Virus record (IMG/VR): IMGVR_UViG_3300037474_000032
Span: 1 to 42,109 of that record
Source of the DNA: a virus
Direction: 5' to 3' (one strand)
DNA length: 42,109 nucleotides
Below, one piece after another: positions 1,219 through 26,731 of the stretch. The stretch's first letter is position 1; the number at the start of each line of letters is the position of its first letter. The position numbers were made by a program, and so were the translations under genes. A model generated the notes under the pieces. That model was not told the origin of the DNA and ran no database searches. It saw nothing but the letters and a program-made list of their open reading frames with translations.

Positions 1219-1410
1219 ATGACCGCACGCGAAAAAATCGCCGCCCATCTCGCAAAGGGCAAGACCATTACCCCGGCCCAAGCCTACGCCTGGTTCCACA
1301 CCATGAGCCTCAGTCAGCACTGTGGAGCGCTCAGAAAGCGCGGGATGAAGATCGGCTCATACATCAAGCCTGGGCATCGCTACGCGGTCTATTACTGCGT
1401 CAACACCTGA
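1219..1410 (+). CDS. Small HTH/winged-helix DNA-binding protein (putative)
   Basis: Uses ATG 1219, 2 nt after the upstream stop, within ORF 1126..1410. The 63-aa product has the segment TITPAQAYAWFHTMSLSQHCGALRKRGMKI, typical of small phage HTH proteins. Confidence 0.6.
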   Translation: MTAREKIAAHLAKGKTITPAQAYAWFHTMSLSQHCGALRKRGMKIGSYIKPGHRYAVYYCVNT

Positions 1411-1480
1411 CCATAGCTTAAATGGAAGAGCACCTTGGCCCTGATCCAAGGGGATGCGGGTTCGAATCCCGCTGGCAGGT
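1406..1480 (+). tRNA. tRNA-like element: possible non-canonical tRNA-Gln(CUG) or tRNA pseudogene
   Basis: Hand fold. T-arm gcggg-TTCGAAT-cccgc (1456-1472). Acceptor 3' strand tggcagg (1473-79) pairs with cctg(a)cca (1406-13) if A1410 is bulged. U8 and A9 at 1414-15. D-arm gctt/gagc with GG in the loop. Anticodon stem ccttgg/ccaagg with loop ccCTGat. Anomalies: C33, a 6-bp anticodon stem, the acceptor bulge, and no encoded CCA. Confidence 0.45.
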
Positions 1481-1501
1481 TCCGAATCTAGAGGCAGACG
1501 T

Positions 1502-3981: not shown

Positions 3982-4563
3982 ATGGAATTTGAATCGTTTC
4001 AAAAGATTCCCCGTTTGAGCCGGGAGTGCACCATCACCGAGAAGATCGACGGCACCAATGCGCAAATCTTAATTCATGCGCTTGAAGGGTTTCCGGTCGA
4101 AGGCGCCACTTGGCAGGCCGATGGTGTGGCTATCTTTGCAGGCAGTCGCAACCGCTGGATTACGCCAAACGATGACAACTTCGGCTTTGCCAGCTGGGTG
4201 GCAGATCATGGCGAAGAACTCGCTGCCGGTTTGGGTTTTGGCCGCCATTTTGGCGAATGGTGGGGCGCTGGCATAGGGCGCCGATACGGTTTGCAAGAGA
4301 AGCGGTTTAGCCTGTTTAACGTCGGCAAGTGGAACGCCGAGAACAAGCCTGCATGCTGCCATGTCGTGCCGACCCTTTACAACGGCATCTTTGATTCCGG
4401 GATCATCTTTGAAAAATTGGCCGATCTGCGGCTAGACGGAAGCGCGGCCGCGCCCGGATTTATGAATCCTGAGGGAATCATCATTTACCACCACGCCGCC
4501 AATCTCTACTTCAAAAAGACTTTGGACAAGGACGAGGAGTGGAAGGGCAAACAAGCCGCCTAA
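3982..4563 (+). CDS. ATP-dependent RNA-ligase-family nucleotidyltransferase (stand-alone adenylyltransferase domain)
   Basis: 193 aa. All covalent nucleotidyltransferase motifs are visible: I EKIDGTN, III FGEWWG, IV PEGIIIY, V LYFKKT. Confidence 0.75.
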   Translation: MEFESFQKIPRLSRECTITEKIDGTNAQILIHALEGFPVEGATWQADGVAIFAGSRNRWITPNDDNFGFASWVADHGEELAAGLGFGRHFGEWWGAGIGRRYGLQEKRFSLFNVGKWNAENKPACCHVVPTLYNGIFDSGIIFEKLADLRLDGSAAAPGFMNPEGIIIYHHAANLYFKKTLDKDEEWKGKQAA

Positions 4564-6931: not shown

Positions 6932-8240
6932 AGTCCCGCGCAAGTTAAAACCGTTACTAGGCAATAAACGATACAAGGGCGCGTACGGGGGTAGAGGCGG
7001 GGCTAAGTCCCACTTCTTTGCGGAACAGATCGTTCTCAGGTGCTATACCAGCTTTACAAGAGTCGTCTGCATCCGCGAAGTCCAAAACTCGATCAAGGAC
7101 TCAGTCAAACAACTCCTGATCGACAAGATTGCAAAGTTCGGACTGGAAGACAGTTTCCGCGAGCTGGAAGGCGAGATCAGAGGCCCGCACGGCTCAATCA
7201 TTATCTTTCGCGGGATGCAGTCCTATAACGCTGACAACATCAAATCCCTAGAGGGATACGATATAGCCTGGGTAGAAGAAGCCCAGACGCTAAGTCAGAC
7301 CAGCCTGGACCTACTTAGACCCACCTTGAGAAAGGACGGCTCTGAACTCTGGTTTAGCTGGAACCCACGATACAAGACCGACCCGGTAGACAAGTTCTTT
7401 CGGAAAAATCCTCCTGCTGAGGCTGTATCGGTCTTTGTGAACTGGCGGGATAACCCCTGGTTCCCACAGGTCTTGCAAAAGGAAATGGCCCATGACTTCC
7501 AAGTCGATCCTGACAAAGCGGAGCATATTTGGAACGGTGGATACGGGTCAAGCCAAGGCGCCATTCTTGCGCGATGGGTATCTCAGGCAGAGCGAGAGGG
7601 ACGCATACATGCTCAAGTTTTATATGACCCTTTCGGCTCCCCAATCGAAGTCTCTAGCGATTTGGGCTTCAGGGACACGGCGTCCTGGTGGTACTGGCAG
7701 CGAAAAGTAGGCGGCTACACCCTGCTCAAGTATGACGGCGATTCAGGTCTTGACGCTGATGACTGGATACCCCGCATTCAGGCTGAACTACTAGGTTTCA
7801 AGCTAGGGAAGATATGGCTGCCCCACGATGCCAAGGCAAAGACCTTCCAGTCCAAGCATACGAGTATCGAAAAGTTCCTCAAAGCCTTCCCTAGTCAGGT
7901 TGATGTAGTCCCCCAGACAAAGAAGCTTGACCAGATCAGCGCGGCTAGAGAAGTCATCCAACGCTGTGAATTTAGTAAAGATGATTGTGAGGACGGCCTA
8001 GACGGACTCAGGGCCTGGGAATACGAGTGGAACGACGACAACAACGTCTTCTCCAAAGAACCCCTACATAACTGGGCATCGCACCCATCAGACGCATTTG
8101 CGTATGGCTGTCAGGTCATGCAGCTATACGAACCCGTGAAGACAGTAGCCGACCCCATGAGGGGTATCACGGTAGGAAACAACAAGGTCACATTGGACGA
8201 ACTATGGCGCATGACGCCCAAACCATCACACAGGATATGA
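6864..8240 (+). CDS. terL: Terminase large subunit (PBSX-like family)
   Basis: 458 aa. It contains LKPLLGNKRYKGAYGGRGGAKSHFFA (Walker-A-like, typical of PBSX-type TerL) and a C-terminal nuclease region. The start could instead be TTG 6906. Confidence 0.85.
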   Translation: MGRAKTARFFTRSKLSSSTLRLEVPRKLKPLLGNKRYKGAYGGRGGAKSHFFAEQIVLRCYTSFTRVVCIREVQNSIKDSVKQLLIDKIAKFGLEDSFRELEGEIRGPHGSIIIFRGMQSYNADNIKSLEGYDIAWVEEAQTLSQTSLDLLRPTLRKDGSELWFSWNPRYKTDPVDKFFRKNPPAEAVSVFVNWRDNPWFPQVLQKEMAHDFQVDPDKAEHIWNGGYGSSQGAILARWVSQAEREGRIHAQVLYDPFGSPIEVSSDLGFRDTASWWYWQRKVGGYTLLKYDGDSGLDADDWIPRIQAELLGFKLGKIWLPHDAKAKTFQSKHTSIEKFLKAFPSQVDVVPQTKKLDQISAAREVIQRCEFSKDDCEDGLDGLRAWEYEWNDDNNVFSKEPLHNWASHPSDAFAYGCQVMQLYEPVKTVADPMRGITVGNNKVTLDELWRMTPKPSHRI

Positions 8241-8241
8241 C

Positions 8242-8511
8242 ATGGCATCGTTAGTGAATATGGGCGGTACCCCTGTCAATCTGTCAGCCTCTGGTGCGGT
8301 ATCCCTGACGCCTGGAACCCTGATTGGGTTCTATGTGAACAGCACATCTTCTGGGACCATCGTTCTTAAGGACGGCGGCACCAGCGGTACGGCTGTTACC
8401 GGAACCATTACCCCCGCGATCGGCTGGCACGCCTTTAACGGCACCTTTGCCACGAATTGCTATGCCACCCTCGGTTCAACCATCAACGTAACATTCATCT
8501 TCCAAGCCTGA
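8242..8511 (+). CDS. Small Gly/Thr/Ser-rich beta-type protein (hypothetical virion-associated)
   Basis: 89-aa ORF between terL and the portal gene. It has four N-x-S/T motifs. Its composition is similar to 10632..11009. Confidence 0.7.
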   Translation: MASLVNMGGTPVNLSASGAVSLTPGTLIGFYVNSTSSGTIVLKDGGTSGTAVTGTITPAIGWHAFNGTFATNCYATLGSTINVTFIFQA

Positions 8512-10631
8512 TGGCGATCAATGGTAAAGGGCGCCCTACCAAGGAGCAAAAGAAGGAACGGGACCTTTACCAAGAGTTAATGGGGCTAGTCACGGCCTAT
8601 GACCGTGATTTCGAGAAATGGACCAAGCGAACCGAAGAGATTATCAAGAAGTACCGGGACGAACAACGAAAGATTGGAGACACACAGTCCAAGTTCAACA
8701 TCCTGTGGAGCAATGTCCAGACCTTAGTCCCCGCGACTTACGCCAGACTTCCACAGCCTGATGTATCCCGGCGTTTTAAGGACCAAGACCCGGTTGGACG
8801 GGTGGGTGCTCTAATCATTGAGCGGGACCTGGACTACGACATCAACCACTATTCAGACTTCAGAAGCACCATGAAGTCGTGCGTATTGGACAGGTTCCTA
8901 GGTGGGCGTGGGACGGCCTGGGCGCGGTATGAACCCCATATCGAGGCCAAGGTACAAAACACCCCGACCGATGGGGTAAACGTCACCGAGGACATAGATG
9001 AGCCGGAAGAAGAACTCGACTACGAGTGCGCTCCCATTGATTATGTTCACTGGCGAGACTTCGGCCATAACGTCGCCCGGACCTGGGAAGAAGTCCATAC
9101 GGTATGGCGCAAGGTCTACATGGGTAGGCAGGCGTGTATTGATCGTTTCGGGGAAGAGTTAGGCAGTCAGATTCCTCTCGACTCTCGACCAGAGGGTCAG
9201 AATAAAGAGAAGGAAGACCAATCCGACACCAGGGCATTGGTCTACGAGTTCTGGGTAAAGACCAGCAAAAAAGCGCTGTGGGTATCTAAAAGCTTAGGGA
9301 AAGTACTAGACAAGCGCGATGATCCGCTTGAGTTGGAGCAGTTCTTCCCTTGTCCTAAACCCTTGTACGCCACGCTCAGTAATGAGAGTCTTGTGCCGGT
9401 TCCTGACTTCGCGTTGTATCAGGATCAAGCAAGAAGCCTGGATACGCTCTGTGACCGCATTGATGGTCTTATCCAGGCCCTACAAGTCAAAGGTGTCTAT
9501 AACTCGGAATTTCCAGAGATTGGCCGGTTGTTCACTGAGGCAACCAATACCAACCTGATCCCGGTAAAAGCCTTTAATGCCTTTGCTGAGAAGCAAGGGC
9601 TTAAAGGTGCATTGGATATGGTGGACTTGACGCCAATCTTCAATGCATTGACTTCGGCGTATGAGGCCTTTCAGCAAGTCCTCAAGCAGATTTACGACAT
9701 CACAGGTCTGGCTGACATTATCCGGGGCCAGTCAGAGGCTTCTGAGACCGCGACTGCTCAGCAGATTAAAGGGCAATACGCCAGCCTTCGTTTGAACTCG
9801 ATGAAGCATGACGTAGCGTTGTTTGCTACCGAAATCCTTCAGCTTAAAGCCCAAGTCATGTTGGGCAAGTTCGAGCAAAGTACCTTGCTAAAGATGGCGG
9901 CTGTAGACCAATTGAGCCAACAGGATCAGCAAATGATCCCGCAGGCCATGGAGCTACTTAAGAACGAACCCATGCAGGGCTTCCGCATTGATATTGCAGC
10001 GGACTCTCTTGTCCAGATCGATGAGCAGGAAGAGAAACAGGCCCGTACAGAGTTTATCAAGGTCATTGGGACGTATCTGAAAGACGCTCAGCCTGTTGTG
10101 CAGGGCGCTCCGATGCTTGCTCCTCTCGTACTCGAACTGCTTAAGTTCGGTGCGACTGCATTTAAGGTCGGGAAGACCGTTGAAGGCCTGATCGATGAAA
10201 CCGCTGAGAAGCTCAAGGCAGCAGCAGAACAAGCCATGAGCCAGCCCAAACCCGATCCTGAAATGGAGAAGGTCAAAGGTCAGCAGATGGCAGAACAAGC
10301 CAAATTGCAGGCAGACCAACAAGCAAAATCCGCTGAGTTCCAGCAAGAGCAGATGCGCATGCAGATGGAATCGCAGTTCGAACAACAGCGTCAGCAGATG
10401 GAAGAAGCCGCACGGGTACGGGAACTCCAGATGGAGGCCTCGATTGAACAGGCCAGGAACCAGATGGAAGCCCAAAGAGCGGCAATGCAGGCCCAGCTAG
10501 ACGCCGCCCTAAAGAGATTCGAAATTCAGGCTAACAACGAAGCAAAGATCGAAGTCGCGGAAATCTCCGCTAACGCCACCCTACAAGCAGCACAAACCAC
10601 TGCGGCAGAGTCCGCGACAGGAGCAGAGTAA
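8511..10631 (+). CDS. Portal protein with long C-terminal Q/E/M-rich coiled coil
   Basis: ATG 8511 overlaps the upstream TGA, within ORF 8457..10631. At 706 aa, its size and its position after terL fit a portal protein. The C-terminal ~130 aa are a low-complexity helical region, reminiscent of a P22-type barrel. Confidence 0.8.
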   Translation: MAINGKGRPTKEQKKERDLYQELMGLVTAYDRDFEKWTKRTEEIIKKYRDEQRKIGDTQSKFNILWSNVQTLVPATYARLPQPDVSRRFKDQDPVGRVGALIIERDLDYDINHYSDFRSTMKSCVLDRFLGGRGTAWARYEPHIEAKVQNTPTDGVNVTEDIDEPEEELDYECAPIDYVHWRDFGHNVARTWEEVHTVWRKVYMGRQACIDRFGEELGSQIPLDSRPEGQNKEKEDQSDTRALVYEFWVKTSKKALWVSKSLGKVLDKRDDPLELEQFFPCPKPLYATLSNESLVPVPDFALYQDQARSLDTLCDRIDGLIQALQVKGVYNSEFPEIGRLFTEATNTNLIPVKAFNAFAEKQGLKGALDMVDLTPIFNALTSAYEAFQQVLKQIYDITGLADIIRGQSEASETATAQQIKGQYASLRLNSMKHDVALFATEILQLKAQVMLGKFEQSTLLKMAAVDQLSQQDQQMIPQAMELLKNEPMQGFRIDIAADSLVQIDEQEEKQARTEFIKVIGTYLKDAQPVVQGAPMLAPLVLELLKFGATAFKVGKTVEGLIDETAEKLKAAAEQAMSQPKPDPEMEKVKGQQMAEQAKLQADQQAKSAEFQQEQMRMQMESQFEQQRQQMEEAARVRELQMEASIEQARNQMEAQRAAMQAQLDAALKRFEIQANNEAKIEVAEISANATLQAAQTTAAESATGAE

Positions 10632-11009
10632 ATGGCTTATGCAAAAGAACTCGTCGCAACCGGTTTTTCTCCGGGTCAAGCCGGGGGTGTTGGTGGTCAG
10701 TACAACGCCACCACAGCCGCAGGTAGTGCAATCACTGACGCCGCTACCGTGACAGCTTCCATGAGTGTTGTGGCCGGCGCTGATGGCACTAAAGGCGTCC
10801 TCCTGAATGGCCAGGTCGGGGATGAGGTTTGGCTGTTCAACAACAGCGCATCGACCCTCAAGGTTTATCCCGAGACTTCCTCGGTTGCCATCTGTGTTCC
10901 AGGAACGGGTACGGGCACAGGCGGAGCTGCATTTTCCCATCTGACCTACAAGACCGCGATCTACAAGAAAGTGACCTCCACTCAATGGCTGGTCAACGTC
11001 ACGGCATGA
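10632..11009 (+). CDS. Small Gly/Thr/Ala-rich beta-type protein (hypothetical head-associated)
   Basis: 125-aa ORF starting 1 nt after the portal stop. Confidence 0.7.
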   Translation: MAYAKELVATGFSPGQAGGVGGQYNATTAAGSAITDAATVTASMSVVAGADGTKGVLLNGQVGDEVWLFNNSASTLKVYPETSSVAICVPGTGTGTGGAAFSHLTYKTAIYKKVTSTQWLVNVTA

Positions 11010-12782: not shown

Positions 12783-12801
12783 ACCTGATTAGGAGTCCAT
12801 T

Positions 12802-13833
12802 ATGGCATTCGCCAATAGTGCGATTTCGGACATCATCGCGACCACGATTCAATCTCGTACCGGTGAACTAGCCGACAACTGCACGAACAACAACGCCCTG
12901 CTGCGCCGCCTGAAAAGCAGGGGGAACGTCAAGACGTTCTCTGGCGGTAACGTCATCCTGCAAGAAATCATGTACAACGACTCCGCGCAAGCGAACGTCA
13001 ACTCGTACAGCGGCTTTGAAACCATTAACATTGGTGTCAACAGCCCGATTTCCGCAGCGCAGTTTCCGATTTCGCAATACGCGGCATCGGTCACTATTTC
13101 CGGCCTGGAAATGCTGCAAAACAGTTCCAAGGAGGCAATCATCGACCTGATGGAAGGTCGCATGGCTGTCACCGAAGCCCAGTTGAATGACCGGATCGCC
13201 AACGACCTGTACCTCGACGGTACCGGGAACGCGGGTAAGAACCTGATCGGCCTGAAAGCGGCTGTTCCGGATACCGCGACCTCCGGGACTTACGGTGGCA
13301 TCAATCGTGCCACCTGGACTTTCTGGCAGTCCAAGTCCTACTCCGGTGTGACCAATGGTGGCGCTGCTGTTACCGCTGCCAACATCCAGGCCTACATGAC
13401 CGCGCTGGCCATTCAAATGGTCCGTGGGAATGACAAGACCGACTTGATTGTCGCTGACAACACCTACTACCAGTACTACGTCAACTCGCTGCAAGCAATT
13501 CAGCGAGTGACGACCAATGGTTCGGGTGAAGCCGGCGCTTTGGGTGCCTCCATGAAGTTCTATGGTGGTGGGATGGAAGCTGATGTGGTTCTCGACGGCG
13601 GTCTGTACACCGGTGGGGACTCGGTCAACACCTCATGGTCTGGGGCTTCTTCGGCGCACATGTATTTCCTGAATACGAAATACATCTTCTTCCGTCCTCA
13701 CAAGGACCGCAACTTTGTACCGATCGGCGGCGAACGGCAAGCCGTTAACCAAGACGCAGTCGTGAAGCTGTACGGCTGGGCGGGGAATCTGACCTGCTCC
13801 GGATCGCAGTTTCAGGGCGTGCTGGTCGCTTAA
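12802..13833 (+). CDS. Major capsid protein
   Basis: 343 aa with SD aggag upstream. Position after the scaffold gene, size and composition are typical of a podovirus major capsid protein. Confidence 0.75.
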   Translation: MAFANSAISDIIATTIQSRTGELADNCTNNNALLRRLKSRGNVKTFSGGNVILQEIMYNDSAQANVNSYSGFETINIGVNSPISAAQFPISQYAASVTISGLEMLQNSSKEAIIDLMEGRMAVTEAQLNDRIANDLYLDGTGNAGKNLIGLKAAVPDTATSGTYGGINRATWTFWQSKSYSGVTNGGAAVTAANIQAYMTALAIQMVRGNDKTDLIVADNTYYQYYVNSLQAIQRVTTNGSGEAGALGASMKFYGGGMEADVVLDGGLYTGGDSVNTSWSGASSAHMYFLNTKYIFFRPHKDRNFVPIGGERQAVNQDAVVKLYGWAGNLTCSGSQFQGVLVA

Positions 13834-13842
13834 GGAGCAATC

Positions 13843-14373
13843 ATGGCCTACACCTTTACCGACCCGCGCTTGGGTCTGCCCAACATTACCAGCATTACCT
13901 CTGTGGCCTCCGCAGGTCTGTTGAACTCCACCGGCATCCCGGTCGGGACCATTGTTCGCGGTTCCGATCCGAGCCTTGGCGGGGGTGAGTTCATCTACCT
14001 TCCGGGGGTTTCCTCGTGCGTCGCCGGTTCCGTGGTGACGTTCAACCAGTCGGCCAATACCGTGATCTTGACGCCGAACACGGGCACCTACGCCGCCGCT
14101 CCCGTAGCGGTTGCCATGGCTGCAAATACCAGCGCCACAGCTCTTAGCTGGTATCAGATCGAGGGAGCCGCGACTGTCGCAAAAACGGCTGCCAAAATCA
14201 GCCCGCTGGTTACGCTGTACATCAGCAGCACGGCAGGCAAGGTGCAATCCACCCTGGCTACCGGTCTTCAAGTGGTTGGCGCCCGTTCGATCAACGCCGC
14301 CACTGTTGCCAGCGCTACCGCAACGGTCCTTGTGATTCTGGACCGTCCGCACATGCAAGGCTCGAAGACCTGA
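13843..14373 (+). CDS. Putative capsid decoration/cement protein
   Basis: 176-aa Ala/Thr/Val/Gly-rich protein directly after the capsid gene. SD aaggag. Confidence 0.55.
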   Translation: MAYTFTDPRLGLPNITSITSVASAGLLNSTGIPVGTIVRGSDPSLGGGEFIYLPGVSSCVAGSVVTFNQSANTVILTPNTGTYAAAPVAVAMAANTSATALSWYQIEGAATVAKTAAKISPLVTLYISSTAGKVQSTLATGLQVVGARSINAATVASATATVLVILDRPHMQGSKT

Positions 14374-14789
14374 TGTTCAGTGGGTTGAAAACTCTGTTGA
14401 GTTATTGGCCCAAATTTCCCCTGACCGATCTACAAACCATCGTAGACGGTCGGGGGACTTTAGTCGTAATGGAGAAGCTTGGCTTCGATTTCAAGCGAGC
14501 CTACTTTCTCCGGGATGTCACAAAAACCAGGGGCGGGCACGCTCACAAGGCATGCCGTCGCCTCATGGTTGCGGTCAATGGCTCTTTCAATCTCAACATG
14601 AGAAACAGAGGGGGCTATACAGATTTCATCATGAACGACCCAACAAAGGGCCAGATCATCGAGCCTTTGACGTGGTGCGAATTAACTGATTTCAGTCCGG
14701 ATGCGATTTGCCTTGTCCTCGCTTCTCATGAGCATGACGAGTCAGACGTGATTCGAGACTACAAAGAATTCCTGAAACTGCTTCGATGA
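14373..14789 (+). CDS. FdtA/WxcM-like cupin: dTDP-4-keto-6-deoxy-sugar 3,4-ketoisomerase family
   Basis: 138 aa. Motifs DGRGTLVVMEK...FDFKRAYFLRDV...RGGHAHK...LASHEHDESDVIRDY match the FdtA-type sugar isomerase domain. Confidence 0.7.
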   Translation: MFSGLKTLLSYWPKFPLTDLQTIVDGRGTLVVMEKLGFDFKRAYFLRDVTKTRGGHAHKACRRLMVAVNGSFNLNMRNRGGYTDFIMNDPTKGQIIEPLTWCELTDFSPDAICLVLASHEHDESDVIRDYKEFLKLLR

Positions 14790-16822
14790 TATCTCTGATC
14801 CTTCCATATTGGGATAGACAGGAAGCGGCAAACGAAGCATTGGCTTTACTCGACAAGACCTATCAAGGCATGGACCTTGAATTGGTCATCGTTAATGACG
14901 GGGGAGATTTTGTCCTTCCGAAACTCAGTCTTAAAACGACCGTTGTGGACCTCCCAAAGAAGTCCGAACCCAAGTGCCCTTGTACTGCCTGGAATGCCGG
15001 CGTAGAGGCTGCTAGCGGGTTCTATGTCGTTCTAAGCTGTATCGAGATACTGCACGAACGACCCGTTTTACAAAGTATGGCGTCGGAACTCGATTCCCTA
15101 GGGCCAATGGGGTATGTCCTGGCTGCGGCTTGGTGTCCCGAGGGGGGATGGCATTGCCATTCTTCTGTGCCTGTACCGACCTGTCCTTCTGGGACGGGGA
15201 TAGCTTTCTGCGGGATGCTGCGAAAGGCCCTATTCCAAAAAGTAGGGGGCTTTGATGAGGAATACAGAGAAGGCGCCGGTTATGAGGACCGCGACCTAAT
15301 CAACAGGCTGTTTGCATTCGGCGCAAAGTTCGTCATTCGCGATGATCTTATCGTCACCCACCCTAAAAAGGGCGCCACGATCTATTGGGGCGCCGATAAG
15401 TTTGCCAGGAACGAGGCACTTTATTTTAAGAAGTGGCCTAACTCGATAGTCCGTATCTGCTGCGTGAACTATGGCAACTATCTTGGAAGAGGTTCGGAAT
15501 ACGTTAACAATCTGTATCGCATGGTGGCTAGAAACGCCACTGCGTTTCGGTTTACTTGCTTTACTGATGACGATTCCGGGTTAGACGAGGGAATCGAGGC
15601 TAAGAGACTCCCAGTCTCCCTAATGGGCTGGGACAACAAGATAGCTTTATTCCACCCTGAGACTTTTGCAAAGGGTGAGCGAGTCGTTTATTTCGACCTC
15701 GATACCCTGATTCTCTCTCCGATAGACAACCTTCTTTCGTATAGAGGGCGATTCGCTGTCCTGAGAGATTTTTGGAGGCCTGAAGGTCTTGGACCTGCGG
15801 TCATGATGTGGGAGTCTGGGACTCATGACTGGATTTGGACGGAATACGAGCAAAGAGGGCGTCCTGATTTAGTAAGAGGGGATCAGGAATGGCTGGAAGA
15901 AGTCCTAAAAGATCGAGACATTCTCCAGGCTGTATTCCCGGACTTCTTTGTTTCGTACAAGACTCACTGCAATCCTTATCCCCCTGAAAAGGCGGGTGTG
16001 GTTTGTTTCCACGGTCTTCCAAGACCACACGAATGTACACAAAAGTGGGTACAAGACACATGGAGCGGAGAGGCCTCCAGGCTCAATCTTCATATTGCGG
16101 TCAATACCGATGTAAAGAAGATCCTCTCCAATGTCTGGGAAAACCGGGATGCAGCCCCTTGGATATGTTCTTCTCCAAAACATGAGGGAGAAGCTCTTAT
16201 CGTCGGGAGTGGGCCGAGTCTTTTGAAGACTCTGGAAGCTGTCAGGGCATACAAAGACGGCGGGGGCGTGATATTCGCCCTCAATAATTCAGCCAGTGTA
16301 TTGAATGAAGCCGGGATCATTCCAGACTATCAAGTCATCCTCGATGCACGGCCAGAGAACATCAAGTTTCTGACGAATTGCGGGATTTATCTTTTAGCTT
16401 CACAAGTTGACCCCTCGCTTTTTAAGCAGGTAAGTGGTCATGCTCTCCAATGGCATCCGGTGATTGAGGGTCTTGGCGAGTTATTTCCAGATGCCCCGAT
16501 AACCCTAATCGGCGGTGGTACGACAGTCGGTCTTTCTTCGATGGCCCTTGCGTATGCGATGGGCTTTAGAAAGCTGCACCTGTTTGGGTATGACTCAAGT
16601 TTCACTGAGGTTACCCACGCCATTCCACAGGACAGAACCGAACAAGAGGCGGCTTCTTTTGAAGTCTCTGTCGGTGAAAAAACATTTAAGACAAATGCCG
16701 CAATGGCGAAACAGGCAGAACTGTTCCCACAGTTTGCCCAGACCCTGGCGGATTTGGACGTTGTGATCAAGGTTTACGGAGAAGGGCTGCTCCCCCACAT
16801 CGCCCACACCTTAACTACTTAA
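14786..16822 (+). CDS. Three-domain glycosyltransferase (GT2-like + second GT-A/DxD domain + DUF115/Maf-like domain)
   Basis: 678 aa. N-terminus ISLILPYWDR...LELVIVNDGGD is GT2-like. The middle region, CVNYGNYLG...GWDNKIALF...VVYFDLDTLI, is a nucleotide-sugar transferase with a DxD motif. The C-terminus ALIVGSGPSL...FALNNS...PDYQVILDARPEN is MptE/DUF115-like, as in Maf flagellin glycosyltransferases. Confidence 0.75.
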   Translation: MISLILPYWDRQEAANEALALLDKTYQGMDLELVIVNDGGDFVLPKLSLKTTVVDLPKKSEPKCPCTAWNAGVEAASGFYVVLSCIEILHERPVLQSMASELDSLGPMGYVLAAAWCPEGGWHCHSSVPVPTCPSGTGIAFCGMLRKALFQKVGGFDEEYREGAGYEDRDLINRLFAFGAKFVIRDDLIVTHPKKGATIYWGADKFARNEALYFKKWPNSIVRICCVNYGNYLGRGSEYVNNLYRMVARNATAFRFTCFTDDDSGLDEGIEAKRLPVSLMGWDNKIALFHPETFAKGERVVYFDLDTLILSPIDNLLSYRGRFAVLRDFWRPEGLGPAVMMWESGTHDWIWTEYEQRGRPDLVRGDQEWLEEVLKDRDILQAVFPDFFVSYKTHCNPYPPEKAGVVCFHGLPRPHECTQKWVQDTWSGEASRLNLHIAVNTDVKKILSNVWENRDAAPWICSSPKHEGEALIVGSGPSLLKTLEAVRAYKDGGGVIFALNNSASVLNEAGIIPDYQVILDARPENIKFLTNCGIYLLASQVDPSLFKQVSGHALQWHPVIEGLGELFPDAPITLIGGGTTVGLSSMALAYAMGFRKLHLFGYDSSFTEVTHAIPQDRTEQEAASFEVSVGEKTFKTNAAMAKQAELFPQFAQTLADLDVVIKVYGEGLLPHIAHTLTT

Positions 16823-16830
16823 GGATACCC

Positions 16831-17451
16831 ATGCTTGCTTCTGATATCGATAATCCTGAATTTCTCGGCTCCAAAAACCCCGATGACATGCTGCATGTCG
16901 AGTTTTACGACTACGCAGCCCCCGACCCTTGGGCGACACGCGAAACCGGCATTCAAAGCTTCCGCAAGGAATGTCCGTTCGTCCGCATTCAAGTGCCGGG
17001 CCAAAAGGACACCATCATTGAAAGACCCGCAGATGGAAAGGACTTGAAGCGCTTCCCCCGTCAATGGCTGCACTACCAAATGATGACCGGGAAGATCGCC
17101 AATGCGGAGAATGTCCCCGGCTGGCAGATCGAGGAATGGGAAGAACTCAATCCGGAGCAAGTCAGGCAACTCAAGTTCCTCCGTTTTTATACCGTGGAAC
17201 AGATCGCAGGGGCTAATGACGCCCAGATTCAGGGTATTGGCATGGGTGGAGCGGGGCTTCGCACTAAAGCTCAGGATGCCCTGCGAGCACGACAAGGGCA
17301 GGCTGTAAGTCAGGCCGTCGCGGAGCGTGACGCCAAGATCGCGGGTCTGGAAGACAGCATTGAACAGATGAAACAGATGATGGCACAACTCTTGGCGGTG
17401 CAAGCCGAAGAGCCTAAAAAGCGTGGGCGTCCGGCGAAGGTTGAAGAATGA
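16831..17451 (+). CDS. Hypothetical virion-module protein
   Basis: 206-aa ORF with SD aaggatacc upstream. Function unknown. Confidence 0.7.
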   Translation: MLASDIDNPEFLGSKNPDDMLHVEFYDYAAPDPWATRETGIQSFRKECPFVRIQVPGQKDTIIERPADGKDLKRFPRQWLHYQMMTGKIANAENVPGWQIEEWEELNPEQVRQLKFLRFYTVEQIAGANDAQIQGIGMGGAGLRTKAQDALRARQGQAVSQAVAERDAKIAGLEDSIEQMKQMMAQLLAVQAEEPKKRGRPAKVEE

Positions 17452-17753
17452 GCCACAGCCTTTACGAGGTAGACAAAAAGATTCTCGCCATCGTCAAGTT
17501 TGGCCCTCCTACGTCTGTAGATGGCCTGAAACCTGCCGAGTACTACCAAGTCACGATTGACCCGGAGAAGATTTCACCTTCTGGTGACTACATCCGCTTT
17601 GGGACTTACGGTGGAGATGAAATCATCGGCTGGCAGCGTTGCGCGGCTTTGACGCTGGTTGAAGTCTTGGGCGAGTGGCAGGAAACCGAGGAGCAGACCT
17701 TTAAGTTCGGCACTCAAGGCCGCGTCGAAATGATGATGAGGGATGATGGCTAA
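17448..17753 (+). CDS. Hypothetical virion-module protein
   Basis: 101-aa ORF with an ATGA overlap with the upstream gene. Confidence 0.7.
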   Translation: MSHSLYEVDKKILAIVKFGPPTSVDGLKPAEYYQVTIDPEKISPSGDYIRFGTYGGDEIIGWQRCAALTLVEVLGEWQETEEQTFKFGTQGRVEMMMRDDG

Positions 17754-18654
17754 CAGCACCATGCTTCAGCTAGTACAGCAGGCCACCGGAGAAATGGGGC
17801 TTGCTGTACCTAACGCTGTCGCGGGTAGCACCTCAACGGACACGATTCAGCAACTCGCCCTGTTGAATGCTGTTGGCTATGAGCTTCTCAGAAAACACCC
17901 CTGGCAGGCGCTGAACAACGCCTACATCTTCCAAGTAGATGTCATCACGATTACCGGGAACACGACTCTCAATTCCTCGAACATCACGAATGCCTCAAGC
18001 ATCGTTGGAATTGACAGTAATTATCAGGTTGCAGGTCTTGGTATTAATCAGGCGACATATGTAAGCGGAACCCCTTCGGGTTCGACTATCGGTCTTAGTC
18101 AACCGGCCACAAGCACGAATACCGGCGCGACTTTTACGCTAACTAAAGTCAAGTACGCCATGCCGTCAGACTATGACCGGCAGATCGATAACACCCATTG
18201 GGACAAATCGAAGCACTGGCAGATGTTAGGTCCTGAATCCCCTCAACAATGGGAATGGCTGCTCTCCGGTTATATCTCGACAGGCCCGAGAGTTAGATAC
18301 CGAATCTTTCAAGACAAGTTCCAGATTTGGCCGGCTGTTGGTAGTGCTGAAGTCCTGGGTTTTGAGTATGTGAGTAAAGGATGGGCCAGGAGCACGACTG
18401 GAACCGTTCAAAACTCCTTCACCGCTGACACTGATACCTGTATTTTCCCTGACCGTCTGATGGTCCTGGGACTTAAACATAAGTATTTCCAGGTCAAGGG
18501 TTTTGGGGATGTCTATGCTCAAGACTACGACGACGAATTAGGAGAGGCCAAGACCAACGACGCAGGCTCCGCAACTCTAGCCATGGCGCCTCAACCGGGT
18601 AATGTGCTTATTACCTGGAATAACATACCCGATTCAGGTTACGGGCAGTCGTGA
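17743..18654 (+). CDS. Virion structural protein (putative adaptor/tail component)
   Basis: 303 aa in the tail-proximal module. It contains the cluster GNTTLNSSNITNASS. Confidence 0.6.
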   Translation: MMANSTMLQLVQQATGEMGLAVPNAVAGSTSTDTIQQLALLNAVGYELLRKHPWQALNNAYIFQVDVITITGNTTLNSSNITNASSIVGIDSNYQVAGLGINQATYVSGTPSGSTIGLSQPATSTNTGATFTLTKVKYAMPSDYDRQIDNTHWDKSKHWQMLGPESPQQWEWLLSGYISTGPRVRYRIFQDKFQIWPAVGSAEVLGFEYVSKGWARSTTGTVQNSFTADTDTCIFPDRLMVLGLKHKYFQVKGFGDVYAQDYDDELGEAKTNDAGSATLAMAPQPGNVLITWNNIPDSGYGQS

Positions 18655-20180
18655 GAATGATTCCCAGTCCCTTGAACAAGGGGCGAGCAAAAGAACAGAC
18701 ACTATCAGCACCAACCGGGGGATGGAACGCCCTGGACTCTCTCGAAAGCATGCCGCCGAATGACGCCCCGATTCTTACTAATTGGGTGCCGACTCCAACG
18801 ACATGCACTGTTAGAAACGGTTATACCCAATATGCCACCGGCCTTGTTTCCCAAGTCGAAACTGTTGCATCTTTCGTTGGGACGACAAGTAGCAAGCTGA
18901 TAGCAGCCGCTGGTACGAATATCTACGATGTGACCAGTGGTGGGACGGTCGGCGCTCCAGTTCAAACCGGTCTTAGTAATGCCCGATGGCAGTTTGTAAA
19001 CTACGCAAATACAGGTGGTTCCTATCTCTATCTCGTCAATGGCGCGGATGCTCCGAGATACTGGGATGGGACAACCTGGACCAATGCAGCGATTACAGGT
19101 GTCACTCCTGCAAACCTGATCCACATCAACCTACATAAAAACAGGGTATGGTTCGTTGAAAAGAACAGTCTCAATGCCTGGTATCTCGCCACAAGCGCCA
19201 TCGCAGGGGCCGCGACAAAGTTTGACCTGACTGGGGTTGTTCAGCAAGGTGGTTACCTCGTCGCCATGGGGACATGGACTATCGACGCCGGTTATGGGGT
19301 GGATGACTACGCGGTCTTCATTACGAGTAAGGGTGAAGTCCTCGTTTACAAAGGCTCAGACCCTGCTGATGCAACGACCTGGGGACTGATCGGAGACTTC
19401 CAAATTGGCGCTCCGATTGGGAGGCGCTGCTTCCTGAAGTACCAAGGAGACCTGTTGATCATCTGCCAAGATGGTCTCTACCCCATGTCGGGGGCTTTGC
19501 AGTCTTCGAGAACCAATCCGAAGGTTGCCCTTAGCTACAAGATTCAATACGCCATGTCCCAGGCGGTAAGTACCTATGGGGGAAATTTTGGATGGGAAGT
19601 CTTCCAATTTCCCAAACAAAACCTTCTATGGGTAAATGTTCCTGTCGCTGAAGGTTCGACCCAACAACAATACGTGATGACCACGATTAATAAGTCATGG
19701 TGCAACTTCAAGGGTTGGAGCGCGAACTGTTGGGAACTGTTCAACGATGACCCGTATTTCGGTGGTAATGGATTTGTAGGTAGGGCTTGGAATGGTCTTG
19801 CGGACAACGGTACCGATATTCAAACCGATGCCCTACAAGCTTTTAACTACTTCGGAAGTGAGGCCCTAAAACGCTTCACAATGATGCGACCCTTCCTGTT
19901 GACCAACGGAAGCCCCGCCGTTTTAGGTAGTTTGAATATCGATTTCAGTCTCGCAGACACAACGGCGGCACTGACGTTCAGTCCAATTGCTTACGCGACC
20001 TGGGATAACGGGATTTGGGACTCCTCCGTCTGGGGTGGTGACCTGAATCTGTCTAGCCAATGGCAGGGTGCTCAAGGGGTAGGAAATACCGCCGCGATAA
20101 GAATTAAAAGCGCAACACAGGGCATTCAACTCCAATGGACGGCCACGACCGTGGTATGGGAGACCGGGGGCATTCTTTGA
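18651..20180 (+). CDS. Virion structural protein (putative tail tube/hub component)
   Basis: 509 aa with a GTGA-type overlap with the upstream gene. Beta-rich composition. The call rests on position. Confidence 0.6.
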   Translation: MRMIPSPLNKGRAKEQTLSAPTGGWNALDSLESMPPNDAPILTNWVPTPTTCTVRNGYTQYATGLVSQVETVASFVGTTSSKLIAAAGTNIYDVTSGGTVGAPVQTGLSNARWQFVNYANTGGSYLYLVNGADAPRYWDGTTWTNAAITGVTPANLIHINLHKNRVWFVEKNSLNAWYLATSAIAGAATKFDLTGVVQQGGYLVAMGTWTIDAGYGVDDYAVFITSKGEVLVYKGSDPADATTWGLIGDFQIGAPIGRRCFLKYQGDLLIICQDGLYPMSGALQSSRTNPKVALSYKIQYAMSQAVSTYGGNFGWEVFQFPKQNLLWVNVPVAEGSTQQQYVMTTINKSWCNFKGWSANCWELFNDDPYFGGNGFVGRAWNGLADNGTDIQTDALQAFNYFGSEALKRFTMMRPFLLTNGSPAVLGSLNIDFSLADTTAALTFSPIAYATWDNGIWDSSVWGGDLNLSSQWQGAQGVGNTAAIRIKSATQGIQLQWTATTVVWETGGIL

Positions 20181-20614
20181 TCGTCGCCGGTCCCGGCGTT
20201 GTGGAGTACGTGGAGAGAGTCAACGGCAGGAAAGACCCATACAGCGGTTATCCGGTCGGGATTGGGATTGAGAAAGAGGGGAAGTTGATCGGCGGAATTG
20301 TTTTCCACGAATTCAACGGTTCCAATTTTTACATACATGTTGCTAGTGATCACCCTAAACGATGGGTGACGCGCGAATGGCTGCACTCTGTTTTTTCCTA
20401 TGCCTTCGATGTCTGCAAGGCAAAACGAATCACCGGAATTGTCCCTGAATCAAATCAGGTGGCACTCAATTTTGACTTGTCTGTCGGCTTCGAAATCGAA
20501 GCAAGGCTTAAAGACGCGCACCCTAAAGGCGACATGCTGGTTATCAAGATGACCCGAGAAACTTGCAAATGGATTGACTATGAGCGATTCCCCAAGCCCG
20601 CCGCCCGCTCCTGA
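20177..20614 (+). CDS. GNAT-family N-acetyltransferase embedded in the tail module
   Basis: Lies in ORF 20135..20614. TTG 20177 overlaps the upstream TGA; ATG 20135 and ATG 20156 are alternatives. The sequence IGIEKEGKLIGGIVFHEFNG...ITGIVPESNQVALNFDLSVGFEIEARLKD fits the GNAT fold. Confidence 0.65.
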   Translation: MIVAGPGVVEYVERVNGRKDPYSGYPVGIGIEKEGKLIGGIVFHEFNGSNFYIHVASDHPKRWVTREWLHSVFSYAFDVCKAKRITGIVPESNQVALNFDLSVGFEIEARLKDAHPKGDMLVIKMTRETCKWIDYERFPKPAARS

Positions 20615-25414: not shown

Positions 25415-26731
25415 ATGCCTAGAAACGGGGCAGGTACCTACACGCTCCCAGCCGGGAACCCCGTTGTAACGGGTACCACTATCAGCAGTACCGTGCAGAA
25501 TAACACGACTTCCGATATTGCGACGGCTCTAACGCAGTCTATCGCGGTAGATGGGCAGTCTGTTGTGACGGCCAATATCCCGATGAACAGCAATAAACTG
25601 ACGGGATTGGGAGCGGCTACGGCTTCAGGGGATGCCTTGTCTTATGGGCAATCTGGGATCTCAGTTGCTGGCCTTACCCTTACCGGGGCTTTGAATGAAG
25701 CACAAGGGGCGGATATTGCCTCTGCCGCTACAACCAACCTCGACACCGCGACAGGCAACCTTGTAGACGTAACCGGTACTACCACTATTACCGCGATCAC
25801 CTTGTCTCAAGGTCGGTCGAGAACCGTGCGCTTTACAGGCTCCCTGACCCTGACCAATGGGGCAAGTCTGGTTCTCCCCGGTTCTCAGAATATTCAAACG
25901 ACTCCGGGGGACTTCGCGGTATTTCGTGGCTATGCATCAAGCGTTGTTCGGCTGGTTTCTTATTCACGTGCTCTTGTTCCGAGTTTTACCCCACCTGCGG
26001 GAGTGATTTTTGGCCTGACCATGAGCACCGCAGGCAGTTCCGCGACCATGACGGTAGCTGCTGGAACGGCGATGGATAGTACCGGTGTTATCGCAATGAA
26101 GCTCCTTGCTTCCACCGGAAAAACTACCTCGGCATGGGCTGTTGGCACAGGGAATGGCGGCCTTGATACTGGCTCAATTGCCAATAACACTTGGTATCAC
26201 TTCTACCAAATCATGAGGCCGGATACGGGTGTCGTGGATGTGGTTTTTTCGACCAACGCAACGTCCCCAACACTGCCGACGAACTACACATTCTATCGAC
26301 GAATAGGGTCTGGCCGTACAAACGGTTCAGCCCAATGGACCAGTTTCACCCAGGATGGGGATTATTTTGAGTGGGCTAGTCCAACCCTAGATGTGAATGC
26401 CGCTGCTCCAGGCGCTTCCGCCGTCACTCGTACTTTGACAACTCCCCTTGGAGTTTCGGTAAGGGCGGCTGTGAACATCTATCTGGACGGCACCACATCG
26501 GGGGACGCTGTTTATCTATCGGACCTCGCCACTACAGACCTCGCGCCTTCAATTACCGCCTCCCCCCTTGCGCAGGCAAACGTCAATGCCGCCTTAAACG
26601 GCTTTGGCAATGCGATTGTTCGTACCAATACATCCTCGCAAATCAGAAGTCGTTGTCAGGTCGGCGGAGGTTCAAACGTCCTCCGACTCGCTACTACCGC
26701 ATGGTATGACCGTCGCGGCCAAGACGCTTAA
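25415..26731 (+). CDS. Tail fibre protein
   Basis: 438 aa. The N-terminus MPRNGAGTYTLPAGNPVVTGTTISSTVQNNTTSDIATALTQSIAVDGQS...MNSNKLTGLG...GDALSYGQ is the conserved phage tail-fibre N-terminal motif. Confidence 0.8.
   Translation: MPRNGAGTYTLPAGNPVVTGTTISSTVQNNTTSDIATALTQSIAVDGQSVVTANIPMNSNKLTGLGAATASGDALSYGQSGISVAGLTLTGALNEAQGADIASAATTNLDTATGNLVDVTGTTTITAITLSQGRSRTVRFTGSLTLTNGASLVLPGSQNIQTTPGDFAVFRGYASSVVRLVSYSRALVPSFTPPAGVIFGLTMSTAGSSATMTVAAGTAMDSTGVIAMKLLASTGKTTSAWAVGTGNGGLDTGSIANNTWYHFYQIMRPDTGVVDVVFSTNATSPTLPTNYTFYRRIGSGRTNGSAQWTSFTQDGDYFEWASPTLDVNAAAPGASAVTRTLTTPLGVSVRAAVNIYLDGTTSGDAVYLSDLATTDLAPSITASPLAQANVNAALNGFGNAIVRTNTSSQIRSRCQVGGGSNVLRLATTAWYDRRGQDA

Follow-up and report, generated by a model that had tools for sequence, protein, structure and literature searches.

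What function do genes for sugar-modifying enzymes serve when they lie between the capsid and tail genes of a temperate phage? The window analyzed here (the whole stretch of 42,109 nucleotides) is a complete, circular genome (about 42 kb) whose late operon is of the Mx8 type. Within this operon, genes for an FdtA-like isomerase and a three-domain glycosyltransferase fusion follow the genes for the major capsid protein (MCP) and the structural protein p176 (Table 1). To our knowledge, phage-encoded glycosylation of virions has so far been documented only in mycobacteriophages, with giant algal viruses as a further case. In mycobacteriophages, the modification blunts antibody recognition.

Genomic context of the cassette

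From terL (6864) to p661 (25346), the genes form one tightly packed array on the + strand that includes the cassette, and intergenic gaps are no larger than 27 nucleotides from the scaffold gene onward. The ATG of the isomerase gene shares one base with the stop codon of p176 (TGATG), and an ATGA overlap couples the start of the fusion gene to the stop codon of the isomerase gene. These boundaries, overlaps and the co-oriented arrangement within a late structural operon agree with an earlier description of the DNA made from its letters alone (hereafter, the sequence-only reading). That reading also called p176 a decoration protein, whereas its PHROG match identifies only a virion structural protein.

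Table 1. Positions of the cassette, its domains and reference genes in the window
Feature	Coordinates	Strand	Evidence or remark
Major capsid protein (MCP); left anchor of the slot and alternative acceptor	12802..13833	+	phrog_9953 E=4e-95
p176, virion structural (capsid-accessory) protein; Mx8 gp49 homologue	13843..14373	+	phrog_29386 E=3e-24; Mx8 synteny
FdtA/QdtA-like cupin, predicted NDP-4-keto-6-deoxyhexose 3,4-ketoisomerase, 138 aa	14373..14789	+	PF05523
Glycosyltransferase fusion, 678 aa, three domains, soluble	14786..16822	+	
N-domain of fusion, GT2-like GT-A, aa 1 to ~218	14786..15439	+	partial PF02709/PF10111; PF00535 in homologues
Central domain of fusion, GT8-like/PmgQ-like GT-A, aa ~222-427	15449..16066	+	phrog_1962 E=5e-29
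C-domain of fusion, Maf/MptE-like, aa ~464-678	16175..16822	+	PF01973
p206, Mx8 gp50 homologue; right anchor of the slot	16831..17451	+	
Integrase	31135..32133		cassette ~14 kb away

A scan of positions 5500-22000 revealed no promoter-like site on the + strand (two sites were found, both on the - strand, versus 10.3 expected) and no convincing terminator, and the cassette carries no promoter-like site of its own. Its position in the operon and its translational coupling suggest that the cassette is expressed late. The MCP is 50% identical to that of Mx8. The cassette has the lowest GC content of the operon (0.49-0.50, versus 0.56-0.61 for MCP and p176). Signs of a temperate lifestyle in the window are the integrase, an HTH repressor-like gene and ERF.

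The isomerase

The predicted isomerase matches PF05523 with E=9e-33 (113.3 bits versus a cutoff of 23), where residues 17-136 align to profile positions 5-129 of 131, and it matches the FdtA/QdtA structure 2pa7 with E=4e-20. The catalytic His-x-His is retained in the sequence RGGHAHK, which reads RGFHAHK in 2pa7 and RGYHSHK in QdtA. The assignment made in the sequence-only reading is thereby borne out. As that reading had also noted for aminotransferases and RmlA/B, neither these nor a reductase is found among the window ORFs scanned with Pfam, PHROGs and NCBIfam, and thus host supply would be required. FdtA enzymes yield an unstable keto sugar, and the missing reductase and aminotransferase therefore count against the glycosylation reading proposed below. 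We considered a GNAT gene (20135..20614) as encoding a sugar N-acetyltransferase that might partner FdtA and rejected it, because the gene belongs to the backbone of Mx8, BUCT555 and ppBjS10J-1, which lack the sugar genes.

The glycosyltransferase fusion

The AF2 model of the 678-residue fusion has a pLDDT of 92.6, and the protein contains no membrane segment (the maximum 19-residue hydropathy is 1.54, in a strand of a GT-A core). The N-domain gives only weak, partial matches to PF02709 and PF10111, whereas PF00535 is found in many homologues. The homologue alignment reveals DDG, E87..H90, GAGYEDxD and DDL..HPK as invariant. DDG and EDxD are conserved, but an invariant E87-x-x-H90 (ExxH) occupies the DxD position.

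The central domain matches P1 PmgQ and P7 HdmD and carries the motifs FDLDTL (DxD) and CFHGxPRPH. Residues D304-L-D306 and C407-F-H-G-x-P-R-P-H (including H409) are invariant in 50 homologues, which fits a GT8-type DxD and a C-terminal metal-binding motif of the HxxGxxKP type. The domain has no Pfam GT8 match and its sequence matches in PDB are weak (6mw5, E=0.03; glycogenin-2, E=0.74), whereas its fold matches glycogenin and GlyE with E values of ~1e-7 to 1e-8.

The C-domain matches the MptE-like family PF01973 at residues 464-608 (E=3e-21, 76.2 bits versus a cutoff of 34.6) and the NCBIfam PseD domain (E=1e-7). It resembles the flagellin glycosyltransferase Maf (5mu5) both in sequence (E=9e-8) and in fold (Foldseek E=1e-8), and the two share the motifs GSGPS, PD(Y/F)Q and GFRxLxLFGxD. 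Only Maf residues 274-416 align, and two GT-A domains flank the C-domain. The PF01973, phrog_1962 and GT-A matches together uphold the earlier proposal that a GT2-like, a DxD-containing GT-A and a Maf-like domain are fused in one protein.

In Foldseek, the whole fusion matches best with the bifunctional polymerases K4CP (E=9e-11) and PmHS2, but with low TM-scores (0.25) that derive only from the arrangement of two GT-A domains. Fold matches in BFVD include multi-domain glycosyltransferases of Catovirus, Hyperionvirus and Moumouvirus. Catalytic-type residues are kept in all three transferase domains and in the isomerase across homologues that are 45-70% identical. From these sequences, the two genes very probably encode an active glycosylation cassette.

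An exchangeable slot in the late operon

At least 562 relatives of the cassette occur in metagenomes, and together they make up a large and very variable family that has hitherto gone unstudied. No cultured carriers were found: a megablast search with positions 12800-17500 yielded no match among GenBank phages, and neither did a tblastn search with the C-domain, even at E<0.01. The relatives share the order MCP, p176, slot, p206 and adaptor. Among roughly 53 slot-spanning loci seeded by MCP, about 19 carry an MptE-like gene between MCP/p176 and p206/adaptor, as do 11 of the 12 loci whose MCP is at least 66% identical. Loci retrieved via the fusion itself have the same order, and the late-operon location is retained even where MCPs are only 33-36% identical. 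Capsid and tail genes neighbor the cassette in every locus examined. The MAG bin labels of relatives include Gammaproteobacteria (locus L111) and Thiobacillus (locus L115).

The constant part of the slot is the Maf-like C-domain, either by itself or in fusion with GT-A domains or a SAM methyltransferase. If the GT2-like, central and Maf-like domains are denoted N, M and C, the architectures are C alone (relatives of ~255 residues), M+C, C+M, N+M+C, double MptE, and C plus methyltransferase (locus L088). In most relatives, the Maf-like domain stands alone or is accompanied by a single GT-A domain. Upstream lies an exchangeable sugar-tailoring gene encoding FdtA, a C-methyltransferase, a PseB-like SDR or a radical-SAM enzyme. 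Such genes are present only where the GT2-like N-domain is found (15 of 19 loci, versus none of 41; Fisher p=7e-11). The isomerase, presented in the sequence-only reading as part of the cassette, is a credible and probably active sugar enzyme. Several tailoring genes can take its place, however, and FdtA is in the minority, present at 4 of the 19 non-redundant fusion loci. Nor can dTDP-4-keto-6-deoxyglucose be assumed as the substrate of every tailoring enzyme, because the SDR of locus L101 is PseB/FnlA-like, which indicates UDP-GlcNAc chemistry.

The slot is empty in Mx8 and ppBjS10J-1, and in Stenotrophomonas phage BUCT555 it holds a holin/endolysin lysis cassette. It is therefore a cargo insertion point, and position by itself does not imply that the enzymes act on the virion. 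The argument from location put forward in the sequence-only reading is thus weaker than assumed. Support for that reading comes from the late-operon site with its recurrence in dozens of related phages, from the soluble enzymes and from the richer Ser/Thr content of p176 homologues where the cassette is present.

Candidate acceptors

p176 carries a Ser/Thr-rich loop at about residues 17-33 and an NTSAT patch at about residues 93-101. With phylogeny ignored, its homologues average 22.0% Ser+Thr where the cassette is present (n=35) versus 15.3% where it is absent (n=7), and those of cassette-bearing (GT+) phages contain an extra Ser/Thr loop. The ORF after the MCP gene likewise contains 21.2% Ser+Thr with the cassette versus 12.7% without it (p=3.5e-8, phylogeny ignored). 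There are exceptions in both directions: locus L119 is GT+ yet has 12.7%, and the GT- loci L012-23, L026, L048 and L110 have Ser/Thr-rich post-MCP ORFs. The Ser/Thr content of the MCP does not differ between GT+ and GT- loci. p206 is an unlikely acceptor because only 5% of its residues are Ser or Thr.

In a partial Mantel test, the divergence of p176 follows that of GT_C after MCP is accounted for (partial r=0.66), but the value for the adaptor is much the same (0.68). Linkage therefore explains the correlation equally well, and we do not regard it as a specific signal of co-evolution. A p176 profile search against PDB sequences and a Pfam search over 17 homologues gave no match, and the single-sequence AlphaFold model has a pLDDT of 36.

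The sequence-only reading had nominated small proteins rich in N-x-S/T motifs as substrates. This excess is marginal for p89 (p=0.03), p176 (p=0.05) and p125 (p=0.055) and weaker for the adaptor (p=0.18), in composition-preserving shuffles of 20 proteins that carry no multiple-test correction. Moreover, N-x-S/T is the signal for N-glycosylation, whereas Maf-type enzymes attach O-glycans to Ser/Thr and need no sequon (PMC11339370), and the motif is of little use as a guide to the acceptor here. On the available evidence p176 is the best candidate acceptor, albeit a tentative choice that could well be wrong, and the MCP or tail proteins might serve instead.

Proposed function and alternatives

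The late-operon site, the soluble enzymes and the Ser/Thr-richer p176 homologues make O-glycosylation of the virion the best reading, and from the sequences we lean slightly toward a virion protein as the target of the cassette. In its full form, this reading describes an island for virion O-glycosylation that is hypervariable and widespread among Mx8-like podophages of Gram-negative hosts (at least 562 metagenomic loci). A minimal Maf-type domain would be combined with plug-in GT-A, methyltransferase and NDP-sugar-tailoring modules, giving a small capsid-accessory protein a lineage-specific glycan coat. We assign it a probability of roughly 0.45.

Cytoplasmic enzymes made late would place a short O-linked glycan on a virion surface protein during capsid production. 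The Maf-like C-domain might add the first sugar to an exposed Ser/Thr, as Maf does on flagellin, using a CMP-activated host sugar that is possibly CMP-Kdo. Maf itself modifies exposed Ser/Thr without a sequon and is reported to accept CMP-Kdo (PMC11339370; bioRxiv 10.1101/2020.06.03.131540), but the phage domain has no counterpart of the N- and C-terminal domains of Maf, and thus Maf acceptor specificity cannot be transferred to it. The GT8-like and GT2-like domains could then attach further sugars. For the latter, FdtA would convert a host NDP-4-keto-6-deoxyhexose (an RmlB-type intermediate) into a 3-keto-6-deoxyhexose. Exchange of FdtA for a C-methyltransferase, a PseB-like dehydratase or a radical-SAM enzyme might then yield a different glycan in each phage lineage.

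Alternatively, the cassette might alter host envelope glycans (LPS core/O-antigen, capsule or EPS precursors). It could do so as a moron for lysogenic conversion or during late infection, when it would keep progeny from adsorbing to debris or exclude other phages. We consider this improbable, but it is the alternative to be taken most seriously. FdtA, C-methyltransferases and PseB-type enzymes are the kind of proteins typically encoded at loci for O-antigen and S-layer glycans. The phage is temperate, the slot accepts unrelated cargo, the tandem GT-A layout resembles the capsule polymerases K4CP and PmHS2, and the low GC content of the cassette points the same way. However, the proteins lack membrane segments and GtrA/GtrB/Gtr(type) or Wzy/Wzx-like partners, and the cassette, which is remote from the integrase, lacks its own promoter-like site and is coupled in translation to a virion gene. 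Its constancy of place across divergent MCPs and the association of Ser/Thr-rich p176 with its presence likewise favor a virion target. We rejected seroconversion of the Gtr type because of the missing membrane segments and the 14 kb that separate the cassette from the integrase.

Homology of the C-domain to the flagellin glycosyltransferases Maf and PseD raises the prospect that a protein outside the virion is modified, such as host flagellin or pilin or another phage or host cytoplasmic protein, with changed host behavior as the outcome. This seems quite unlikely, given that the N-terminal and C-terminal (FliS/flagellin-like) domains of Maf have no counterpart here, that no flagellar or nonulosonic-acid genes lie nearby, and that late expression would leave little time for flagellar effects. 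Even less probable is the synthesis of a free or lipid-linked polysaccharide by two alternating GT-A domains, as in glycosaminoglycan synthases, with the polymer freed at lysis or coating virions non-covalently. The Foldseek matches to bifunctional polymerases suggest such an activity, but they reflect domain arrangement only, and relatives with a Maf-like domain alone or one GT-A domain could not polymerize an alternating chain.

Least plausible is hypermodification of phage DNA with sugars against restriction, as in T4 or 5hmC-glycan systems: phage GT-A enzymes that add Kdo, heptose and other sugars to DNA exist, but such pathways cluster with C5-methyltransferase/5mYOX or thymidylate-synthase-like and replication genes (bioRxiv 10.1101/2023.12.21.572611), whereas no C5-methyltransferase, TET/5mYOX or ThyS gene is detectable in the window and in all relatives the cassette is surrounded by capsid and tail genes.

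If the cassette does O-glycosylate virions, Gram-negative bacteria are hosts to a large environmental lineage of phages that glycosylate their virions with a different enzyme toolkit, and no phage-encoded system of this kind would previously have been known outside actinobacteriophages. Maf-type enzymes would likewise gain a substrate class other than flagellin for the first time, which would widen the range of substrates of the Maf/PF01973 fold. Swapping of modules would parallel the way in which O-antigen and flagellin-glycan loci diversify, and the pattern implies selection on the outward appearance of the virion by agents such as host defenses, receptors, grazers or particles. The cassettes would also offer a compact family of soluble, sequon-independent protein O-glycosyltransferases with varied donor sugars, which might find use in engineering the glycans of proteins and phage particles.

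Comparison with known systems

Gtr proteins are membrane proteins encoded beside int/att and expressed in lysogens. Like the phage described here, Gtr-type systems involve temperate phages that carry sugar-modifying genes as exchangeable cargo, but the present proteins are soluble, and their genes lie in the late operon, where they are coupled to a virion gene. The isomerase shares with FdtA/QdtA enzymes (PDB 2pa7, 4o9e) a single cupin of ~140 residues, ~35% full-length identity and the catalytic His-x-His. Unlike those systems, the phage encodes no FdtB/QdtB aminotransferase, acetyltransferase or RmlA/B, and the sequence does not reveal the nucleotide carrier (dTDP or UDP) or the product stereochemistry.

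Maf, PseD and PseE (PDB 5mu5; PMC11339370) are cytoplasmic and possess a homologous PF01973 catalytic domain, and Maf O-glycosylates surface Ser/Thr of a self-assembling structural protein before assembly (PMC11339370). Maf consists of N-terminal Rossmann-like, central and C-terminal helical FliS/flagellin-like domains (PMC11339370). The phage domain lacks the first and last of these, is fused to GT-A or methyltransferase domains, and resides in a capsid operon rather than beside flagellar or nonulosonic-acid biosynthesis genes.

Chlorovirus PBCV-1 (A064R; A111/114R) and the glycosyltransferase/methyltransferase fusions of giant viruses are likewise virus-encoded, soluble and multi-domain, and enzymes of the PBCV-1 type (GT + GT + GT or methyltransferase) build an unusual MCP glycan in the cytoplasm (PMC7826918). 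These are eukaryotic viruses with N-linked glycans and no Maf-like domain, and homology to the phage fusion is not detectable beyond the generic GT-A fold.

The mycobacteriophage glycans are experimentally shown, whereas the function proposed here is predicted from the genes. Those of Che8, Corndog and Myrna are carried on capsid and tail-tube proteins (Freeman et al. 2023, as cited in PMC12619734), and the enzymes are not themselves virion components. The mycobacteriophages infect actinobacteria, are siphoviruses or myoviruses, and have no Maf/MptE-like domain, FdtA or three-domain fusion. Both systems place glycosylation genes in the virion structural operon: in Corndog, genes gp35-38, which encode glycosyltransferases and a methyltransferase, are inserted between portal and protease (PMC4351075), whereas the insertion here follows the MCP and its accessory protein.

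Organization of the Genome and Late Operon

The contig begins and ends with an identical 127-bp repeat (1..127 and 41983..42109), so the window represents an entire genome of 41,982 bp, either circular or terminally redundant. The phage is temperate and, besides a tyrosine integrase, its temperate and early genes include an HTH repressor-like gene, ERF and lambda O/P-like replication genes. Immediately before the O-like replication gene is a tRNA-Gln (anticodon CTG) that overlaps the predicted start of this gene; the true start probably lies further downstream.

No near relative was found among GenBank phages. By major capsid protein (MCP), the closest cultured phages are Myxococcus Mx8 and Mx9, Stenotrophomonas BUCT555 and Bradyrhizobium ppBjS10J-1 (~49-50% identity), followed by Brucella Tb-type podoviruses. 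Mx8 has the same gene order as the window, namely MCP, gp49 (p176, annotated as 'virion structural protein'), gp50 (p206), adaptor, gp52 (p509) and GNAT, but carries no sugar genes in the slot between p176 and p206. In BUCT555 (8643..9963 of its locus), a holin and an endolysin are located between the capsid genes and gp50/adaptor, and sugar genes are likewise absent. Thus, late operons of the Mx8 type have in this slot a general insertion point for cargo. The GNAT gene (phrog_4470) belongs to the backbone and lies outside the cassette. Its ORF shares 46 nucleotides with the 509-aa tail gene, and its position is kept in Mx8 (gp53, annotated as 'potential holin'), BUCT555 and ppBjS10J-1.

The cassette genes reside within an unbroken plus-strand array bounded by the large terminase (6864) and a 661-aa tail protein (25346). 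Beginning with the scaffold gene, gaps do not exceed 27 nucleotides and many genes overlap. Both cassette ORFs were located where the sequence-only reading had placed them, co-oriented and tightly packed with stop/start overlaps at each gene. A scan of positions 5500-22000 revealed no sigma-70-like consensus site on the plus strand (two were found, both on the minus strand, against a chance expectation of 10.3) nor any convincing plus-strand terminator, which is weakly consistent with transcription of the cassette as part of the late operon. The cassette is also the GC minimum of this operon (0.49-0.50; MCP has 0.56 and p176 has 0.61), perhaps because it was acquired horizontally or is expressed at a lower level. 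Upstream, the probable start of the portal gene is ATG 8511, one base of which also belongs to the stop codon of the 89-aa ORF (TGATG), rather than TTG 8457.

Features of the window and domains of the fusion protein
Feature	Position	Strand	Remarks
tRNA-Gln	1407..1480
O-like replication gene	1454..2272
RNA-ligase-like protein	3982..4563	+	PF09414, E=3e-10; early region
p89	8242..8511
p125	10632..11009
MCP	12802..13833
p176	13843..14373
FdtA-like gene	14373..14789	+	138 aa; ATG shares one base with the p176 TGA stop (TGATG)
Fusion gene	14786..16822	+	678 aa; start inside FdtA stop (ATGA)
N-domain			GT2/GT7C-type GT-A; partial matches in window protein, PF00535 in many homologues
Central domain	aa ~222-427		PHROG 1962 'glycosyltransferase', E=5e-29
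C-domain	aa 464-608		PF01973 MptE-like, E=3e-21 (Pfam)
p206	16831..17451
Adaptor	17743..18654
GNAT-like gene	20135..20614
438-aa tail-region protein	25415..26731		25% Ser+Thr
HNH endonuclease	30507..31031	-	early region
Tyrosine integrase	31135..32133
Nucleoside 2-deoxyribosyltransferase-like	33990..34874	-	sub-threshold match; early region

Proteins Encoded by the Cassette

The 138-aa protein scores 113 bits against the Pfam FdtA/WxcM-C model (PF05523; gathering score 23) and, along its entire length, matches the FdtA (2pa7, E=4e-20) and QdtA crystal structures. Its RGGHAHK segment aligns with the catalytic His-x-His segment RGFHAHK. By both overall sequence and catalytic residues, the protein is thus FdtA-like, as had been proposed without database searches. 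An alternative public gene call gives a 106-aa product, which we rejected because it would lack the conserved N-terminal strand; the 138-aa reading is correct. The usual FdtA pathway partners are missing among the window ORFs scanned.

The C-domain of the fusion matches the Maf flagellin glycosyltransferase 5mu5 (E=9e-8 by sequence; common motifs GSGPS, PD(Y/F)Q and GFRxLxLFGxD) and the NCBIfam PseD flagellin-modification domain (E=1e-7). Among the three domains, the central one alone has cultured-phage homologues, including P1 PmgQ, P7 HdmD and proteins of jumbo phages. An AlphaFold model based on a 50-homologue alignment (mean pLDDT 92.6) matches the tandem GT-A enzymes K4CP and PmHS2, Maf 5mu5, and, in the GT8 or protein-O-glycosylating class, glycogenin, GlyE and ppGalNAc-T in the PDB. 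Pfam, PHROG and structure searches therefore agree with the original assignment of a GT-A N-domain, a DxD GT-A domain and a Maf-like C-domain.

Across 50 homologues (46-69% identity), invariant or nearly invariant residues include DDG, E87..H90 (at the usual DxD position), GAGYEDxD and DDLxVxHPK in the N-domain, FDLDTL (DxD) and CFHGxPRPH, a GT8-like metal-binding motif pair, in the central domain, and GxGPS, DAR, GYDSS and H611 in the C-domain. Because these are catalytic-type motifs, all three domains look enzymatically active. The fusion has no membrane segment.

A Modular Family in Uncultured Phages

The cassette belongs to a large, modular family that is so far confined to uncultured Mx8-like phages. 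Database proteins include more than 260 full-length homologues of the fusion, many of them on ~40-kb contigs, and a metagenome scan yielded at least 562 encoded relatives. The closest relatives come from freshwater, soil and MAG data (L102, L103, L111). The MptE-like domain was not detectable in cultured phages in a GenBank phage search, and phage records contain almost no FdtA homologues. Relatives in UniProt/BFVD are only automatically named 'MptE-like' proteins of uncultured Caudovirales, and a full-text literature search found no papers on them.

We retrieved 80 IMG/VR loci with MCP alone, ~53 of which span the slot. An MptE-like gene occupies it in ~19 of these, and in 11 of the 12 loci whose MCP is at least 66% identical to that of the window. 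The slot variants are modular, comprising the MptE-like domain by itself (~255 aa), its fusion to a class I SAM methyltransferase (439-460 aa; 6995..8314 of locus L088, 439 aa, and ~14 similar loci within L083-L099), the central and MptE-like domains in either order, the full three-domain fusion, and a 960-aa protein with two MptE-like domains (P0028, locus L104). The MptE-like domain is the sole element constant across cassette variants.

Upstream of the fusion is an exchangeable sugar-tailoring gene. The commonest is a TylC3/TcaB9-type C-methyltransferase (Methyltransf_13/14). FdtA occurs in the window and in loci L102 (MCP 92% identical), L186 and L111 (MCP 35% identical), a radical-SAM enzyme in L203, and other methyltransferases in further loci. 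Locus L101 (7605..10013) carries a truncated PseB/FnlA-like UDP-GlcNAc 4,6-dehydratase (E=6e-43, below the curated cutoff) and a separate GT2; a GIY-YIG homing endonuclease also lies just before its fusion gene. These enzymes have in common chemistry around an NDP-4-keto-6-deoxyhexose, with the nucleotide carrier differing among them. Tailoring genes accompany 15/19 non-redundant loci with the N-domain versus 0/41 without it (Fisher p=7e-11, a statistic that ignores phylogeny), which ties the tailored donor sugar to the N-domain.

Candidate Acceptors

Maf enzymes act in the cytoplasm, where they O-glycosylate exposed Ser/Thr residues of a structural protein with no need for a sequon, and they can accept CMP-Kdo, a donor produced by every Gram-negative host (PMC11339370; bioRxiv 10.1101/2020.06.03.131540). 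The cassette enzymes are soluble and would be made alongside capsid proteins; by analogy with Maf, they would modify a virion protein by O-glycosylation. This is the best-supported mechanism, and the case for it rests on context and correlation; to a virion target we assign a probability of roughly 0.55.

The most plausible specific acceptor, named here only tentatively, would be p176, a small virion protein encoded directly upstream of the cassette. Its homologues contain 22.0 ± 2.7% Ser+Thr with the cassette (n=35) and 15.3 ± 1.1% without it (n=7); in L010, a close relative lacking the cassette, the value is 13.4%, within the cassette-free set. For the first ORF after MCP, the corresponding values are 21.2% (n=52) and 12.7% (n=19; Mann-Whitney p=3.5e-8), or 20.5% versus 12.7% for distant-MCP loci only, with exceptions both ways and some non-p176 homologues in the cassette-free set. 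The samples in these comparisons are phylogenetically non-independent. Ser/Thr content of MCP does not differ with the cassette.

In p176 homologues that accompany the cassette, an additional loop rich in Ser/Thr (window aa ~17-33) and an NTSAT patch are present, and the C-terminus is a conserved RPHxQGxxT, usually with terminal Thr, whereas most cassette-free homologues end otherwise (alignment A2). Mycobacteriophage glycans are located at C-termini, and thus this C-terminal motif could be a glycan site. Neither a profile search against PDB sequences nor Pfam over 17 homologues gave a fold match for p176, and its single-sequence AlphaFold pLDDT is 36. Partial Mantel tests tie p176 divergence more closely to the MptE-like domain (r=0.66, MCP controlled) than to MCP (r=0.21). 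However, the adaptor is equally dependent on this domain (r=0.68), and simple linkage within mosaic genomes therefore suffices to explain the pattern.

The sequence-only reading had chosen candidate substrates partly by N-x-S/T motifs. This argument does not hold, as enrichment is marginal (raw p of ~0.03-0.05 in 3/20 proteins) and sequons are irrelevant to Maf-, GT8- and GT2-type O-transfer. Of the proteins it proposed, p89 is barely conserved, and p125 does track the cassette weakly (9/32 vs 1/35), but relatedness confounds this count. The 438-aa tail-region protein weakly matches (E=0.007) domain 2 of Mtd, the tropism determinant of BPP-1; the window showed no reverse transcriptase.

Alternative Functions

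The main alternative is that the cassette modifies host glycans, through either lysogenic conversion or late receptor masking. A temperate phage, a slot that accepts cargo and tailoring enzymes typical of O-antigen loci would all suit such a role. However, the cassette proteins are soluble, Gtr/Wzx/Wzy-type partners are absent, and the cassette, which is coupled to a virion gene, lacks a separate promoter in the consensus scan and keeps its position across very divergent capsids. Glycosylation of DNA would require methyltransferase/dioxygenase or thymidylate-synthase partners, which were not detected in the window, and modification of flagellin or pilin is disfavored by the lack of Maf acceptor-binding domains in the phage protein. 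A polysaccharide polymerase is suggested solely by the tandem GT-A arrangement (TM 0.25) and is inapplicable to the many single-domain relatives.

Comparison with Known Systems

The virion-glycosylation genes of mycobacteriophages are functionally the closest comparison to the cassette. Corndog carries a methyltransferase and three transferases within its structural operon (PMC4351075), and mycobacteriophage capsid and tail-tube glycans are cited in PMC12619734. Similarities extend to the multi-domain capsid glycosyltransferases of chloroviruses (PMC7826918), but the cassette lies outside both enzyme families. With Maf, the C-domain has its catalytic domain type in common, but differs in two features that define Maf, the three-domain architecture and the flagellin context.
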